Shown piece after piece: positions 18,873 through 61,763 of a stretch of 64,000 nucleotides of DNA (positions within the stretch are counted from its first letter, which is position 1; every line of letters begins with the position of its first letter). Source of the stretch: Moniliella sp. 'wahieum' (Eukaryota); assembly GCA_003971905.1 (NCBI GenBank), contig RSEE01000105.1:62001-126000 (forward strand). The letters are read 5' to 3'. The notes under the pieces were generated by a model. That model was not told where the DNA came from, did no database searches, and was given only the letters and a program-made list of their open reading frames with translations. Position numbers and translations under genes: made by a program.

Positions 18873-18918
18873 AGGGATCGTGGAAAACTTGAGACAGGGA
18901 TCGTGGAAAACTTGAGAC
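18873..18918. repeat. Perfect 23-bp tandem duplication AGGGATCGTGGAAAACTTGAGAC
   Basis: Copies start at 18873 and 18896, followed by a partial AAGGGAT. Confidence 0.85.
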
Positions 18919-19225
18919 AAGGGATACTCATTGGAATCCGCAATGCATCGACAATAGAGTAGTACGTTTCATAGTTGGCTGTACCAACACGAGAAGATGG
19001 GCCACATCAACAGAAGAGAGAAGGGTGTGTGTAAAAAGACATCTAGGTCTCAACGGTAGGGAGGGGGAGGGGGAGGCAGAGAGCACAAGAAGAAGGATCC
19101 ACAAACGTGGTAGCTGTTTCAGTACTCAAGTACTCAAAGTGCACAAGCACTCAGTCCGAGATCCCACCTCGATCTCAGATCCTATACCACAGACCACACA
19201 CCACAGACCACAGATCCAAGCTTAC

Positions 19226-21234
19226 TTAGTCTGCGTCGCGTCCTCGCCCGTCTTGTGGAGCTTGTGGGCGAGGCGATCCAAGAGCGAAGGGTGGGTCTGC
19301 TTGCATGCTCGTCATGGGCAGAAGAGTGCGTTCGGTGTCCTGCTCAGCCTCTTCTGCGGCGACAGTACCAGGGCCCAAGACTTCCTCTTGCACCAGATCG
19401 CTTGGGCCAGACGACGCATCGTACGTGCCGCCTCCGACGGGTTGCTTGGGAGCCGGATGACCAGCTTCGAGTACCGGGTCCGCACCAGGAACACCCGAGA
19501 GAGCCGCCATGGGTTCCGATGGGAACGACTCTCCACCCCCATGCTCAAGCCCATGCGCGTGGTGATGATGAGCGTGGTGATGGTCGAAACAGTACGTCGG
19601 ATCCGTTTCGTCGCGCGGCACTTCATGTTTCATTCTGTTTTGAGCTGCAATTGCCTCGTTGCGATCCACCTCGACCCGAGGCAAGGAGGCTACCTCGTGC
19701 ACCACGCAGTCCGATGGGAGTCGTGCGCCTTCACTACCAGCGACCGAAGCGACCGAAGTGGCAGAAGCGACGGAAGGAGTTGGGTGCAGACCAACCGAAG
19801 TAGTGGGGTGTCTTTGTCAGTGTCGGGTGAACAGGAACAGCGGTCTTCTTCTCGGCTCGCATTGCACCCGCGGTCCCTGGTCCCAACACCCGTTCCTGCA
19901 CCAACGTGGTTGGGCCTAAAGCTGCATCGTACGTGCCACCACCGATGGGGTGCGTGCGGGTCTCACCCCACGTTGGATGGGCGGTATCCACGTCCGAGTC
20001 GGGAGAGACATCCTCCTTCGCATGTCGGTGCGAATGGTGGGTGAAAGAGTAGTTTTCGGAGTAACATCTTGCGGTACCTCCTGTTGGAGTCTGTGCTGGG
20101 CCAACAAGACAGCGTTACGGTCCACCTCGACCTGCGGCATGGAAGCTACCTTGTGCACGACGCAGTCGGAGGGAAGGCCCGCGCCATCGGCCCCGGTACC
20201 TGCAATGGTGTACGACTCATGCAGAGGGCTCTCACTTGCCGTTGTCGTAGTCTTCTCTAAGGACGGGTGGGGATCCTTGGCCTGTTTGGCGCGCATAGCA
20301 CCCACGGTCCCTGGTCCCAACACCGTCTCTTGCATCAAAATGGTGGGGCCAGAGGAGGCGTCGTACGTGCCCCCACCGACGGGGTGGGGGCGGGTGCACC
20401 TCCGAAGCTCGGATCAACGGGTGCGGGCGGGTCAGCGACCGAGTCGTCGTCCACAGCATGGGCATGCTTGTGCGGGTGATGGTGCGTAAACACATAATAC
20501 GACGAAGGGTGAACGTCGCGCGGCACGGCATGTTCGAGTTTGTTCTGAGCCACGAGCACATCATCCCGACTCAGCTCGGTGCGAGGTAACGTGCCCACCC
20601 TGTGCACGACGCAGTCTGACGGCAGACCTGCGCCGTCCGCCCCGTTCCAGCAATGGTGTACGCCTCATGCAGCGGTTGTCGTTCGACACCGTCGAGGTTC
20701 TGCAGAGCCGGCGGGGGCTGATCAGCTTGCTCCTGCGTCATCTCAGCAGCCACAGTGCCTGGGCCCAGGACCTCCTCTTGCACCAGCTCTGTGGGCCCAG
20801 AAGAGCTGTCGTAGGTACCGCCGCCGAAGGGATGCGCCAGGGCCGCGAGAGGCACACGCCCGAGTCGGATGGGTGCGCTTGAGCGTGAGGGTGGGGGCAA
20901 GGAGCATAGGTAGGCGAAGTAATGTCCTTTGGAACGTCGCGTTCGCGCTTATGTTCCGCTACGAACGCGGCGTTGGGGTCCGGTTGGACTTCGGGCATCG
21001 TAGCCACCTTGTGCGACGACGCAGTCCGAGGGCAGGCGCTCGCCCGCCTTGGCGGGTTGGTCGGCCTCGGCGTCGTGCACGTACCCCCCGGCGGGCTGGG
21101 GGTGGTGGCGTCCGGACTAGCGTGGGAGTTGGTGTGCAGCAGCCTTCAAAGGCGTTGGTGAGGGAGTTGAGCAGGCCGCCTTGGGCTGCACCGTGGGTTG
21201 GGGCCGATGTGTCGGCAGCAGGGAGGGAGGACAT
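19226..21234 (-). CDS. Uncharacterised protein of four ~140-150-aa tandem repeats
   Basis: Motifs LPSDCVVHxVAxLP...EVPxD and GGGTYDxSSGPTxLVQExVLGPGTVAA recur four times across ORFs 20959-21345, 20738-21007, 20571-20900, 20335-20607, 19916-20338, 19734-19991 and 19226-19705; start MSSLPAAD at 21234. Confidence 0.8.
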
Positions 21235-21713: not shown

Positions 21714-21867
21714 TGTTGACATCCGTCCTAGGACCGCGCGGACCCTGAGTCACGTGAGTCAGCTTTCATTCCTTCCGACGCACCATCGTCTGGACGAGTC
21801 AGTCGCAGAAGCTTCTAGTCAATACGACGTTCAGTGCTCACATTCTGTGGTAGTAGCGAGGCCGACA
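21714..21867 (+). repeat. 5' LTR (154 bp)
   Basis: TGTTGACATCCGTCCTAGG...GAGGCCGACA, matches 26586-26746. Confidence 0.95.
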
Positions 21868-21920
21868 GAGTTACATCCTTATCTGCTCATCCCTGAGCTG
21901 GCCAAAACTACACCCAAACC

Positions 21921-23148
21921 ATGGGCGCCAACGCTAAAACCGATCTCTCGGTCAGCGACACCACAATGGTGAACAAGCGCGATTACTGGACACCAACCGG
22001 TCGCGATCCGCCACCGATTGGCACCGACAACGAGGAACTCATGATGCTTTGCGCCGAAGCGCACCTGTGGTTCAAGAAGACGAACGACATCGATGTCGTT
22101 AAAGAGAAGATCACAGAGCTACACGACAGAGCCGAGTGGCTTGGATGGAAGGACGAACCTAGCTATCACGACAAACTGGGTTCGACGGGCTACGAATTTG
22201 TGGTGCAAAACATCCACCAAATGGAAACTCAACCAACGCAACTTTGGGGGCACACAGGCGCAGCCTCGCGACCCGAGTACGACCTTTACAGATCACTACG
22301 CGAGTCTCCACCAAGAATATCAAGTGGCCTGATATGAACAAAGACCCGTCCGCTACAGCGTTGGGAAGAACGATTTCTCTTCGCGAACAGATGCCCACCC
22401 CCACGCAAGCGACGTCGTCCAGAATGGTCGCAGCTCCCGCTACTTCACCGAGGACCTCGACAGACGCTTGCACAACCTTCTTAGGGAAGCCATGCCGTCA
22501 ACCCTCTTCCGGACGATCCGCACCCACCACGAAATATCATGCACCCAGGACACGCTGAACATGCTGCGTCAGCGGTATGGATATACGCCTACCGCAAACA
22601 GAGGGCCTCTACTCATTCGCTACTTTTCGGCCGACCAAGGAAACCGATCGGGTCGAGGACTACCTCGACTACATGGAAGAGATCAGTGCAAGCCTGACGC
22701 GAGCGGGCATCCCACTTACGGAAGAGCAGGAACGCACTGGGATCCTACTCGGCTTACGCGACATGAGCATTCGCCAGCGTGAAGAGCGCTCGAGTCTAGA
22801 CAAGTTACGGCAGGCCGTGATGGACATACCAGCCGCCACGTATCCGGTGGGAAAGGAAGAGAAACGGAGGCAAGCCGGTCAACGGAGGAACGCCTTGGAC
22901 TCGACCGACAGCGGGGACGACCCACCAGCGGGGGAAAAAACTCCAGCGGGGCAAAGCCGGCGACGACAACCTCGCGGACACAAAGACCAAGGGGCAAGAC
23001 CGCACCAACCAACCCTGGCGCAGCGCGACGTCTAATAAACCTGTTGTCCCTCCGCGCAACCAGGCCGAGCCAACGCTCACGTCGCTCAGAGAGCGAGCTC
23101 TCCGAGTCTGAAGTGATTGACGTTGATGCGGGCACAGCTGACTACTAG
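21921..23148 (+). CDS. gag: Gag of the copia element (indel-broken), ending at TAG 23146-23148
   Basis: Successive ORFs 21921-22337, 22468-22782 and 22577-23035 with copia-gag-like helices (LNMLRQRYG; VEDYLDYMEEISASLTRAGIPLTEEQ...ILLGL); the pol frame is open from 22783 to the TAG; no CCHC knuckle seen. Confidence 0.75.
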
Positions 23149-26100
23149 GAACTCGGGGGCGAAATGCGAATCATCCGGGCATTATATGACAGTGGGGCAT
23201 TCCCATCCATTTGGAAAGACAAATCCGTCTTCACATCCATGACCCCTTGCGACGACGAGATAGAGGTTGCTAACGGGACACATGTAAAGGCGGAAGGACG
23301 AGGCACGGCCACAATCCGTATCCGATGCTTAGGAGGACACCAAATGGAGATAAAACTCCCCAACAGCCTATACATGCCCCGTTTCAGCCGAAATCTCGTC
23401 AGTGTAGCACACCTGTCGAACACCGGAATCGCATCATACTTCGCCCCACACCAGAAGGGTATCTGGCTTGGTAACCCAGGATCCACCCTACGAAAAGTAA
23501 CCGGCAGTGACTATCAATTCACGATCTTACACAACCCGCGAACGCCACCCACACCCCTGCGGGCCATGGCGACCAAACCGATCAAACCGGCCGACCCACC
23601 CTCAACCCCAAACTCCCTCGCAGCATCCCTGGCCCTGGACCACGTCTCTAAAGCCCACAAACGCTGGAACCACGCAGCCATCGACCTCCTCCCCTGGCTT
23701 ACACGATCGGAAACCGCAGGCCTCCGCGTCACAGCCAAGCATATCTCCCTCTGTCGTTCAGAGTGGGATTGCCCAACATGCGCGGTGGCACTAGCGACAG
23801 CATCGCCCCATCCGAGCCGGGACCGCCTCCGATCCAAAAGACCTTTCGAGGTCCTCCACGTCGACGTAGTAGACCTCCCCCGGGTAACCGGCATGGGGCA
23901 CGGATACGCCCTCGTCGCCGTTGATGACTTCACGCGGTACGTCTTCACCACAGCGATCCCGACAAAGGGCGCTGCAACGAAGGAACTGCGGAACCTCATA
24001 TTGCGGGAGCAACGCTACGGCCCGGACAGACTGCTGCGGACTTTGCGCACGGACAACGCCCCCGAATTGACAAGCGCACTGCAACCTTTTCTGGACGAGC
24101 AAGGCATCACGTCAGAACGGACAATCCCGGGGCAGAGTGCTAGCAACGGTGTGGCTGAGCGTGCCATCCGAACCATAACGACTCGTGCAAGGCAGTTGCT
24201 CTTGGGTACAGGTCTTCCGACGTCGGACTGGTGGGAACACAGCCTCCACGCTGCGTGCTTCACCCAAAACCAAATGCCACTCAAAACATCCGGGGAAGAC
24301 AACAAATCGCGATTTGAGCGATACAAAGGCCACGCATACTCGTTACCGATGCAACCCTTTGGCCGCGTTGCATACCTCCATCTGCCCGAGTCACGCCGCG
24401 AGCACAAGCTCAGCGCGCGGGCAGAGGAAGGTATGCTGGTAGGATACCACCATCAGCGCGGATCAAAGGGATGGCTCTTCGCCACATACCAACCATCCCT
24501 GGGTACCTTCACCTACCGCTGGTCGAAACCGTACAAATGGGGCAACGCCATCTACCCCCATCTCCACCCCGACCACTTCCCACCCGACATCTCCAAATCA
24601 CCTCAAATTAAAATCGACAGTGAAAAAGACGCTAACCCTACTCCGCCAGCCGCGGCAGCACCCATGCCCCGAACCGCCGCCACACCCCAGACACCCGCTC
24701 CCACCACCACCCCCCCTCCGCGCCGCTACCCCCTCCGCCAGCGCACCACCCGCACCTCCCTCGACCTGCACACACTCCCAATCGCTGACGACCCCACCGA
24801 CACGACCTACCATGCTCGTGCTGCAGCCGCCACGCCCCACTGCGCCGCACCAGAGATCGGCATCGCCCGCCCCCTACCTGACACATCCGCCCCCCCGTTT
24901 GCCGACACAGTTCAACCTCCCGAATACGCCGCCATGACTGCTCTCAGCGCACCCATCCACCCGGACACGGTTCAGCTCACCAAGGATGGCGTACCCCTCG
25001 CTCCCAAGACGCTCAAGGGTCTCGAGACTCACCCCTCCTTTGCCATGGTCAAGCAGGCTATGGCCGACGAGGTGGCCACACTCGCGCGATACGGCACCTA
25101 CGAGGCTACGTACCCACCACCGGGTGCACAAATCCTCATAGGACTATGGCGCATCACCACAAAGACGGACGCCGAGGGCCGGTTCCTGCGCCACCGCGCG
25201 CGCTTTGTCGCGGGCGGACACCAACAATCGGCCGAGACTTGGGGCCAGACGTTCGCACCATCGGTGCGCACACCTGCCATCCTGACCCTCGTCGTGCTGG
25301 CCGAGAAGTATAAGTTTGGCCTCTTCTCGGCGGACGTCAATGCAGCGTACCTGAACGCCCCCCTCGAAGAAGCAGTCTACATCCGCCCACCCCCCTACTT
25401 CCCCGAAGCGGGTGGTCGCGTGTGGCGTCTCAAGAAGAGTCTATACGGGCTACATCAGAGCGGAGCAAACTGGGCACGATACATCCGGAACCTGCTGCGT
25501 GACAAGCTCGGCTTCACGCAAAGCTTGACCGAGCCCTGCTTGTTCGTGCGCGCTGCACCACCGGGTGAGCAGATCCTCCTGGCGGTCCACACCGACGATC
25601 TGCTCCTCGCATGCAAGTCACACCAAAAGTACGAGGAGTTTATGGCCGAGATAAACACACACATTGATGTTCGTGGTAACGGTCCCCTTCACTACCACCT
25701 GGGATGCCAATACGATCGGATCGGTGGGGAGCTGTACCTGAGCCAACCAAAGTTCATCGAGGAAGTGGTGGCAAAGCACCACATCAAAGCCCCGTGGATC
25801 CGGACTCTCCCACATCCCGTACGGATGATACCGCCCCGTGCCGACCCTGAACCCCATCCCTCCCAGCCTTGCGCAAGGCATATCAGGGGAAGATCGGATC
25901 GGGACTGTGGGCTGCACGAATGGGCCGGCCTGACTCCCTCTTCGCTATCACGGCCCTCAGCAGAGCCGCTGCCGACCCATCGCAGCAGCATCATCAAGCA
26001 GTCGATGACTTCCTTCGCTACCTGTACCATACTCGAGGAAAGGGCCTGAGGTTGACCCCAACATCAGATGCACCGGCCATTGCGCTGTATACAGATTCCG

Positions 26101-26591
26101 ACTTGGCGGGAGATCCCATCCAGGCACGCTCCACATCTGGATGCCTACTGATGGTGTACGGTGTGCCGGTGTCGTGGCGATCCATTCTTCAGCCGAAGAG
26201 CGTTACCAGTACCGCCGCCGCCGAATATACGGCAGGATATGATGGACTGGTTGACGCCAACTATGTCAAGAACATCATGATCGAGCTTGGGGCCATCGGC
26301 GAGGGTACACCCATTCATTGGTATTGCGACAATAAGTCTGTCGTCGATCTCGCCCACAAATTTGGCAGCACCGGCAAGCTCCGAGAGCTGAAGATCCGGT
26401 ACCACAATGTACGGCAACACGTGGACTCGGGCGAGGCCATACTTGTACACATCCCCGGCGAAAGGAACCCAGCGGACGTCCTCACCAAGCCTCTCGGCCG
26501 TCCCGCCCTGACAAGCCATCTTGCTCAACTCCGCGTCGAGGAGATGGATCCAGTCCACATGACTGGGCCCTCCGGTCAGCGGGGGTGTTGA
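23149..26591 (+). CDS. pol: Pol polyprotein (protease, integrase, reverse transcriptase, RNase H)
   Basis: PR LYDSGA; HKRWNH...CPTC; IN LHVD, DDFTRY, LRTDNAPE, SNGVAER, SKGW; RT DVNAAYLNA, LKKSLYGLHQSG, HTDD; RH YTDSD, AAEY, CDNKS, NPADVLTK; one frameshift near 25800-25870. Confidence 0.95.
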
Positions 26592-26746
26592 CATCCGTCC
26601 TAGGACCGCGCGGACCCTGAGTCACGTGAGTCAGCTTTCATTCCTTCCGAGCTCGCACCAGTCTTCTGGACGAGTCAGTCGCAGAAGCTTCTTAGTCCAA
26701 TACGACGTTCAGTGCTCACATTCTGTGGTAGTAGCGAGGCCGACCA
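26586..26746 (+). repeat. 3' LTR (~160 bp)
   Basis: Matches the 5' LTR apart from a few small indels/substitutions; preceded by GGGGG. Confidence 0.95.
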
Positions 26747-27116
26747 ATGGTGCACTCGTAGCAAAAAAGAAGACCAAAAAGTAGATGTACTGAGAGGCCC
26801 TACGGTTGGGTTGGTACTCTTGTATAACTGAGTGGGAGGACTTGTCGGCGCCACGACAGTGTCCGCACACATCACACATCACACATCACACAACACACAT
26901 CGCGCTGTTCCATCCGCCTTTCAGCTAGGTTCTGTCCCCTATCGGGCTGCTCATGTATCGGTCCATTCCTGTCACTGTCACCTTCACTCTCATTCTGCAT
27001 TCAATACCACTTCTCTCTGTCGACCTCGACCTCGGTCCCCAGTCGCACGCACGCACTGCATGGTAATCGCAAAACCAATGGACTGCACCATGGGGTACTT
27101 GTTGGCACAAAAAAAG

Positions 27117-27211
27117 TGGTCAATATGAGGCTTGAACTCATGACCTTGGCATCACCAACACTCCGGAAGGACATATTAGTACCACGCTCTGACCAACTGA
27201 GCTAATCGACC
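27117..27211 (-). tRNA. tRNA-Ile(AAU) with 21-nt intron (27153-27173)
   Basis: GGTCGATTAGCTCAGTTGGTCAGAGCGTGGTA-CT-AAT-A[intron]A-TGCCAAGGTCATGAGTTCAAGCCTCATATTGACCA; cloverleaf, A/B boxes, oligo-T terminator. Confidence 0.96.
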
Positions 27212-61667: not shown

Positions 61668-61763
61668 TGGTCAATATGAGGCTTGAACTCATGACCTTGG
61701 CATCACCAACACTCCCGCAGGGACATATTAGTACCACGCTCTGACCAACTGAGCTAATCGACC
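61668..61763 (-). tRNA. tRNA-Ile(AAU) with 22-nt intron
   Basis: Exons identical to the copy at 27117-27211; oligo-T terminator. Confidence 0.96.

Follow-up and report, generated by a model that had tools for sequence, protein, structure and literature searches.

The Moniliella element and its leader

The window analyzed here, a stretch of 64,000 nucleotides from the basidiomycete Moniliella sp. 'wahieum', contains a young Ty1/copia retrotransposon lying between two LTRs at 21714-26746. The 5′ LTR (21714-21867, +) has TG...CA ends and forms a direct repeat with the 3′ LTR (26586-26746, +), with boundaries set by the differing flanks of 30 copies; in better-read copies of the family the LTR is approximately 160 nt long. 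The internal region encodes gag (21921-23148, +), which is frameshifted in the assembled window copy, and pol (23149-26591, +), whose open reading frames cover protease, integrase, and RT, followed by a C-terminal part in another frame, with one frame break near 25.85 kb. As originally read, gag ends at a TAG (23146-23148) that is preceded by TAC and is in frame with pol. The Pfam domains Pol_BBD, rve, SH3_retrovirus, and RVT_2 are arranged in the protease-integrase-RT order of Ty1/copia elements, and the RT is of the RVT_2 type. A short purine-rich tract just before the 3′ LTR (26577-26585, +) is a candidate PPT. The TSD of the window copy is imperfectly read, as ATGG on both flanks, and a clean 5-bp TSD is found in the related copy L134, completing with the TG...CA LTRs, the PBS, and the PPT the structural features of Ty1/copia elements (Pseudoviridae).

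A neighboring host gene has its best named hits in basidiomycetes, at no more than 55%, which agrees with a basidiomycete host that has no close named relative among those hits. A junction pattern applied to the whole genome (69.5 Mb, 223 contigs) recovered at least 55 copies of this element, hereafter family A. Most of the 30 copies fetched differ from each other by a median of 0 substitutions over approximately 1340 sites, and the family is therefore very young; the frequent single-base indels among its copies look like assembly noise.

Directly after the 5′ LTR, at 21868, the element reads GAGTTACATCCTT and lacks a TGG, in agreement with the original prediction. The first eight nucleotides (21868-21875, +) constitute the core of the putative primer-binding site (PBS), a Watson-Crick complement of positions 40-33 of tRNA-Tyr(GUA), which is free of substitutions in 54 of 55 junctions and has a 1-nt deletion in the remaining one. 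Nucleotides 9-14 of the PBS (21876-21881, +) face tRNA positions 32-27 and pair at three of six positions; nt 9, 10, and 13 are the ones altered in copy L134. Downstream, the boxes GCTC, TCC, and CTGAGCT (21885-21899, +) are complementary to the D-arm positions 25-22, 20-18, and 15-9 of tRNA-Tyr, with GCTC beginning at 21885 and CTGAGCT at 21893, where they had been placed before. In free RNA the same boxes also form a 5-bp hairpin, GCTCA/TGAGC. Comparison with the host tRNA-Tyr gene L074 further reveals an alternative 5-nt box (21881-21885, +) that would complement tRNA-Tyr 32-28 if nt 9-13 were looped out; this is not the pairing of minimum energy computed for family A with tRNA-Tyr.

The PBS matches a spliced host tRNA-Tyr

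A loose tRNA-Tyr pattern gave 349 matches in the genome, and 14 Tyr genes were fetched from among the first 100 of the 349. A specific pattern returned 28 genes, its positions being fixed up to 36 so that other isodecoders would be missed. All 28 matched genes have TCAGA at 27-31, TT at 32-33, the GTA anticodon, A37, an intron, C38, and TCTGA at 39-43, and the intron sequence varies from gene to gene. Their C38 and T39-C40 are those called for by the PBS, and PBS nt 1-8 pair 8/8 with positions 40-33 in the spliced form only, across the 37/38 junction. Like the predicted site of Copia-50_PHord, the PBS fits the spliced and not the intron-containing tRNA-Tyr. Because it complements the anticodon stem-loop with a primer end at nt 40, it has the form expected of a half-tRNA site.

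The original prediction had named the same primer, a tRNA-Tyr(GUA) 5′ half ending at nt 40 with extra D-arm complementarity, and our comparisons favor that identification. It had also read nt 9-13 as an anticodon stem, AAGGA-[C]T, from which C32 was missing through a 1-nt assembly deletion, and this part does not hold. Host tRNA-Tyr 27-33 is TCAGA-TT in the 28 matched genes, and nt 9-13 are mostly mismatched to it (11 of 14 ungapped pairs over positions 40-27 as a whole). As for the deletion, the extra G is found at none of the 55 intact junctions, of which 51 match the window exactly and four are variants; a single 50-nt string spanning the LTR end and the PBS is common to the 30 fetched copies. 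The host anticodon arm resembles the expected AAGGACTGTAACTC in one half, since positions 33-40 match exactly, and departs from it in the 5′ part. The right tRNA had been reached from the wrong stem. A pattern for a C32-type tRNA-Tyr gave 13 matches, which proved to be six tRNA-Gly introns and seven non-tRNAs, with no tRNA-Tyr. The host tRNA-Tyr genes (L074-L087) carry U32 and C38; C32-A38 is the more usual combination.

Specificity was assessed with a splicing script run on 33 host tRNA loci, of which 30 were parsed (two Tyr and 28 others); at least two loci in this set are misparsed (L108, L115), and iMet, Lys, Cys, and others lie outside it. Contiguous Watson-Crick pairing from nt 40 extends over 8 nt with Tyr and over at most 3 nt with the 28 other parsed tRNAs, or at most 4 nt in any register. 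When G-U pairs and any register are allowed, other tRNAs reach runs of 8-9 nt. The energy of the whole-half duplex does not single out Tyr among the parsed tRNAs for family A (Phe -35.5, Ala -32.8, Tyr -32.8 kcal/mol). Phe ranks above Tyr because the D-arm boxes are common to several tRNAs, and both Phe and Ala are unpaired with the family A PBS at their nt-40 end. In the nt-40 register, only GUA or GUG anticodons would be compatible with PBS nt 5-7, even for tRNAs outside the parsed set. These nucleotides, TAC, should be unable to pair with CAU, which would place family A outside the Hemiviruses in the narrow sense, defined by a tRNA-iMet primer. tRNA-Thr(UGU) in a shifted register was also considered and rejected, the host arm being TGC at 39-41. 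Taken alone, family A does not make an overwhelming case for Tyr, its core being only 8 nt long; strong support for the putative Tyr primer comes from the register together with the sister families and the converted copy L134.

Three sister families carry related sites

Sister families were sought by protein search with P0002 and by a PBS pattern that excludes the window-type site, which gave 73 matches vs 4 in the control. The matches comprise 31 sites of family B, 17 places of family C, 19 sites of family D, one family A variant, two copies of a candidate repeat F, and two others. The pol sequences of B, C, and D are 41-57% identical to that of A, with D its closest relative (53%), and blastn found no hit between their LTRs and the family A LTR. 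In family B, 11 contiguous nt pair with tRNA-Tyr, four are looped out, and eight more are paired; in family C, nine contiguous nt pair. Tyr ranked top for B, C, and D alike among the 30 parsed tRNA loci, a set without a correctly spliced His.

The GCTC and TGAGC boxes are unchanged in B and C, and the loops between them differ yet still pair with G18-G19. The invariant stem sequence across A, B, and C argues for pairing with the tRNA, while the A that all three place opposite tRNA A21 favors the hairpin and argues that it is selected as well. The free leader of these three families also has its energy minimum in the GCTCA/TGAGC fold. The suspicion that the pair might be just a local hairpin is borne out as to the hairpin itself (-5.9 kcal/mol) and not as to the word "just": it is probably both a local hairpin and a docking site for the D-arm.

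The family D site is 14 nt long and reads C at nt 4, a base that mismatches A37 of Tyr and pairs with G37 of His. Its 14 nt pair at -15.3 kcal/mol with Tyr vs -20.9 with His, 13 contiguous nt being paired with the latter, and a genome pattern search found no tRNA-Tyr gene with G37. Over the whole half the two energies are nearly equal (Tyr -34.3, His -32.5). By pairing, family D appears to fit tRNA-His at least as well as tRNA-Tyr. A C at PBS nt 4 is likewise present in repeat F (L137, L232) as in family D (L131, G000:C57:59327; L132, C12:226083). Repeat F pairs better with the tRNA-His(GUG) anticodon arm than with that of Tyr, and no pol hit was found in L137. A switch of primer from Tyr to His, or dual use, is possible for family D and repeat F.

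Copy L134 may carry an imprint of the primer

L134 (G000:C33:561782) is a full family A copy, with a 5-bp TSD and LTRs that differ by indels alone. Aligned with L010 over approximately 1490 nt, it shows 21 single-base indel columns and three substitutions; the latter fall at PBS nt 9, 10, and 13, and each introduces the base complementary to Tyr. Six differences seen for L134 in a multiple alignment were set aside as gap-placement artefacts, the pairwise alignment showing the three PBS substitutions alone. The outcome is a PBS that pairs 14/14 with tRNA-Tyr 40-27, and nt 15 keeps the family base rather than the complement of G26. L228, a more diverged family A copy, has the mismatched T9-C10 state, which suggests that the state of L134 is derived.

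Given priming by Tyr, L134 probably represents the tRNA-Tyr primer copied into DNA. The end of the match falls where a block might be expected: m2,2G26, which is made in yeast by Trm1, blocks RT on human tRNA-Tyr (PMC11831618), and the modification is presumably present in the Moniliella host. Plus-strand synthesis in Ty3 extends over 12 nt of the primer, and the product is normally a dead end whose primer portion is not inherited (PMC5371799).

If Tyr priming holds, it is a good deal less likely that L134 has another origin, namely local duplication of the neighboring 5-nt box, a short tract acquired from family D or from a non-coding relative, an ancestral PBS that was retained, or an error in the assembly. 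The five replaced nucleotides do equal the adjacent box and L134 agrees with family D at nt 9-14, but the length of the site is unchanged, so that slippage would need both a deletion and a duplication, and no further substitutions occur in approximately 1.5 kb. The 21 indel columns relative to L010 would suit an error of assembly, and that primer sequence is not inherited in Ty1 and Ty3 (PMC5371799) likewise speaks for another origin. Against such an origin, three independent changes would be expected only 2e-9 to 2e-6 times among 55 copies at per-site rates of 0.1-1%, a post hoc figure, and the state of L228 suggests that the mismatched site is older. No L134-like conversion was seen among the 31 B, 17 C, and 19 D sites, and family A has one in 55 copies.

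A model for priming by a tRNA-Tyr half

Sequence complementarity, register, copy counts, and conservation together make it very probable that family A primes its minus strand from nt 40 of a spliced tRNA-Tyr(GUA) half by way of a split site. From these we infer both the cleavage and the priming step: minus-strand DNA would start at the 3′-OH of nt 40 in the mature, spliced tRNA-Tyr(GUA). Its 5′ half would be gripped by the element RNA through eight perfect pairs (40-33), a weakly paired middle, and the D-arm boxes, which would fold as a small hairpin when the tRNA is unbound. The primer sequence would normally not be passed on, as in Ty1 and Ty3, so that the mismatched PBS persists. Rare transfer of plus strong-stop DNA reaching primer position 28-27 would yield a copy of the L134 type, with a modification of G26 as the presumed RT stop. 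For Pol, the most likely route of synthesis is a bypass of the in-frame UAG that does not depend on priming.

The gag-pol junction and its proposed link to priming

TAC-TAG is in frame with pol in 30/30 family A copies, and gag is open to the TAG in 17 of them (16 at 415 codons and one at 414). An in-frame UAG ends gag in all four families, and UAG-GA stands 13-17 codons before the protease motif in B, C, and D. The codon before the UAG is TAC in A and B, GAA or GAC in C, and AAA in D. A readthrough signal of the MuLV type combines a purine-rich spacer with a pseudoknot 3′ of the UAG; the four families have UAG-GA, and no significant fold was detected 3′ of the UAG (z +0.94, -1.47, -0.85, and +0.95, for structures without pseudoknots). 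In families B and C (L128, L130), a G+C-rich stem of 9-10 bp begins 4 nt after the UAG, its z-scores not being significant.

The original prediction had speculated that one tRNA couples priming with UAG readthrough, such that the same tRNA-Tyr would be mechanistically selected both as reader of the gag UAG and as primer of reverse transcription. A parallel could be drawn with Tca2, which we take to be one of the Candida families that use a stretch inside tRNA-Arg(UCU). Tca2 carries UGA between gag and pol (PMC2194720), the primer of those Candida families is tRNA-Arg(UCU) (PMC4139406), and yeast inserts Arg at UGA (PMC4150775). UAG-GA precedes the protease in all four families, and Tyr accounts for 92% of UAG readthrough in yeast, where the 5′ context has no effect on the amino acid inserted (PMC4150775). 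Readthrough by Tyr is plausible by default because Tyr dominates in yeast, and nothing can be drawn from the preceding Tyr codon, since the 5′ context does not alter the residue inserted.

Coupling nevertheless finds no support in these families and is very unlikely. The Tyr codon precedes the stop in just two of the four (A and B), a cleaved half would be unable to decode, and Tyr would be the default reader of UAG whatever the primer. Family D retains its UAG though His fits it equally well, in-frame gag stops also occur in fission-yeast elements related to the self-priming Tf1 (10.1101/2022.12.06.519325), and significant structure 3′ of the UAG is lacking. Just as improbable is a fuller scenario in which tRNA-Tyr caught in UAG readthrough is co-packaged and, after cleavage at nt 40, serves as primer, with L134-type inheritance resetting the PBS and allowing drift between Tyr and His. 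Its inheritance part is far more likely than the coupling, and taken alone we lean towards it: a copied primer may occasionally be inherited and reset the PBS.

Alternative primers

There is only a very slim chance that the primer is instead a tRNA-His(GUG) 5′ half, or that Tyr and His halves are interchangeable. Between positions 27 and 40, only 27, 36, and 37 distinguish the anticodon arms of the host Tyr and His tRNAs (tRNA-His as found in 26 of 29 pattern matches), and the family A core would form six Watson-Crick and two G-U pairs with His, at -8.2 vs -8.6 kcal/mol for Tyr. The 13-nt match of family D also points in this direction, tempered by its near-equal energies over the whole half. 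Against His, the D-arm boxes of A, B, and C fit Tyr and not His, and whole-half energies favor Tyr by approximately 10 kcal/mol (family A -32.8 vs -23.0). In L134, moreover, nt 4-5 are still T and nt 14 is still A, contrary to what a copied His primer would leave.

Self-priming of the Tf1 type, which the original prediction had entertained as a possible better match, or priming from a 3′-CCA end, with an incidental tRNA match and GCTCA/TGAGC as a hairpin only, is scarcely credible even though that hairpin is the preferred free-leader fold: TGG is absent, the LTR holds no complement of the first four PBS bases (against the first 20 nt, the longest stretch of complementarity is 5 nt) and so offers no Tf1-type pairing between the PBS and the LTR-borne 5′ end of the RNA, and the anti-tRNA core is common to unrelated LTRs.

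Comparison with known half-tRNA systems

The tRNA-Tyr half favored here has a precedent. Anticodon loops of spliced Tyr, Ile, and Asp tRNAs have been predicted as primers for Puccinia Copia and Helenus elements (Kojima 2024, PMC10886601), with Copia-50_PHord of Puccinia hordei a user of the Tyr anticodon loop and fungal Helenus TRIMs likewise of the half-tRNA type (PMC10886601). The account of Copia-50_PHord given there, so far as it describes that element's site, includes no D-arm boxes, gag UAG, His alternative, or imprinted copies, unlike that of family A (PMC10886601). Tyr-half priming is already in print (PMC10886601), and our core finding is an expected extension of known biology; the primer-imprinted copy is what is added. 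Family A is grouped with the fungal Tyr-loop users by putative mechanism, and would work like copia and Ty5. Outside the genome's own families and P0001, its RT hits are at most 37% identical. In a metagenome scan, the best 80 of 229 loci were all at most 38% identical, none fell in the family A clade, and three motif hits were judged to be chance.

A primer end at nt 40 defines Hemivirus-type priming (PMC1181622). The elements copia, Ty5, Osser, and 1731 resemble family A in Ty1/copia gene order, in the nt-40 primer end, and in a PBS that abuts the LTR (PMC1181622, PMC5371799). They use tRNA-iMet with experimental support, whereas tRNA-Tyr is the predicted primer of family A; family A also differs from the Hemivirus type in its shorter perfect core (8 nt) and in the stop codon between gag and pol. 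Like family A, Tca2 belongs to the copia elements and has gag separated from pol by an in-frame stop, a feature of all of families A-D, and its junction alone gave no readthrough in S. cerevisiae (PMC2194720). The Candida families use a non-iMet internal tRNA region, that of Arg(UCU) (PMC4139406), whereas family A has Tyr, and UAG rather than UGA.

In plants, Osser, Bryco, and Gymco-II use a half tRNA-Met and Bianca a half tRNA-Ile, the half-tRNA PBS is confined to Ty1/copia elements as it is here, and the identity of the primer can change; for these four elements the source describes no Tyr half (PMC6317226). Primer sequence is not inherited in Ty1 and Ty3 (PMC5371799), and the mismatched PBS is likewise kept in 51 of 55 family A copies. 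L134, unlike Ty1 and Ty3, appears to carry 13-14 nt of inherited primer, as retroviruses routinely do.

Within the literature that we found, experimental support for half-tRNA priming concerns iMet only, and Tyr, Ile, and Asp are sequence predictions. The present genome offers four diverged families that can be compared with tRNA genes of the same host. If the imprint in L134 is true, it would provide in vivo evidence for the Tyr half and reveal a leak in the Ty1-type pathway in which the primer is not inherited, and the copied primer would end where m2,2G26 should block RT. An imprint would also offer a route for resetting the PBS or for a Tyr-to-His switch, a kind of change whose mechanism is called unknown in PMC10886601. 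A literature search with thin coverage of older primary papers found no primer-imprinted half-tRNA PBS and no His half.

Other features of the locus and genome

A generic tRNA pattern applied genome-wide gave 879 matches vs 144 in the control, with most isotypes seen to have variable introns. One intronless tRNA-like gene with a poorly pairing anticodon stem is present in at least three copies (L107 at G000:C2:846782, also C5:903190 and C5:1043935) and was called Trp(CCA) by ARAGORN. Two intron-containing tRNA-Ile(AAU) genes lie in the window at 27116-27211 and 61668-61763 (-), the first approximately 370 bp beyond the 3′ LTR. Among 30 other element loci, tRNAs were found at just 2. The start of the LTR (21714-21724) and the PBS (21868-21878) share the 6-nt word ACATCC after GTT; the word was not seen in families B or D, and its occurrence at both places in family A is probably due to chance. 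Upstream of the element, a tandem array of degenerate repeats of approximately 450 bp occupies positions 18893-20843. Elsewhere in the genome, one family A copy (L018) stands head to head with an LTR-end-like fragment and another (L020) lies approximately 1 kb after another LTR, arrangements that suggest nested or clustered insertions.
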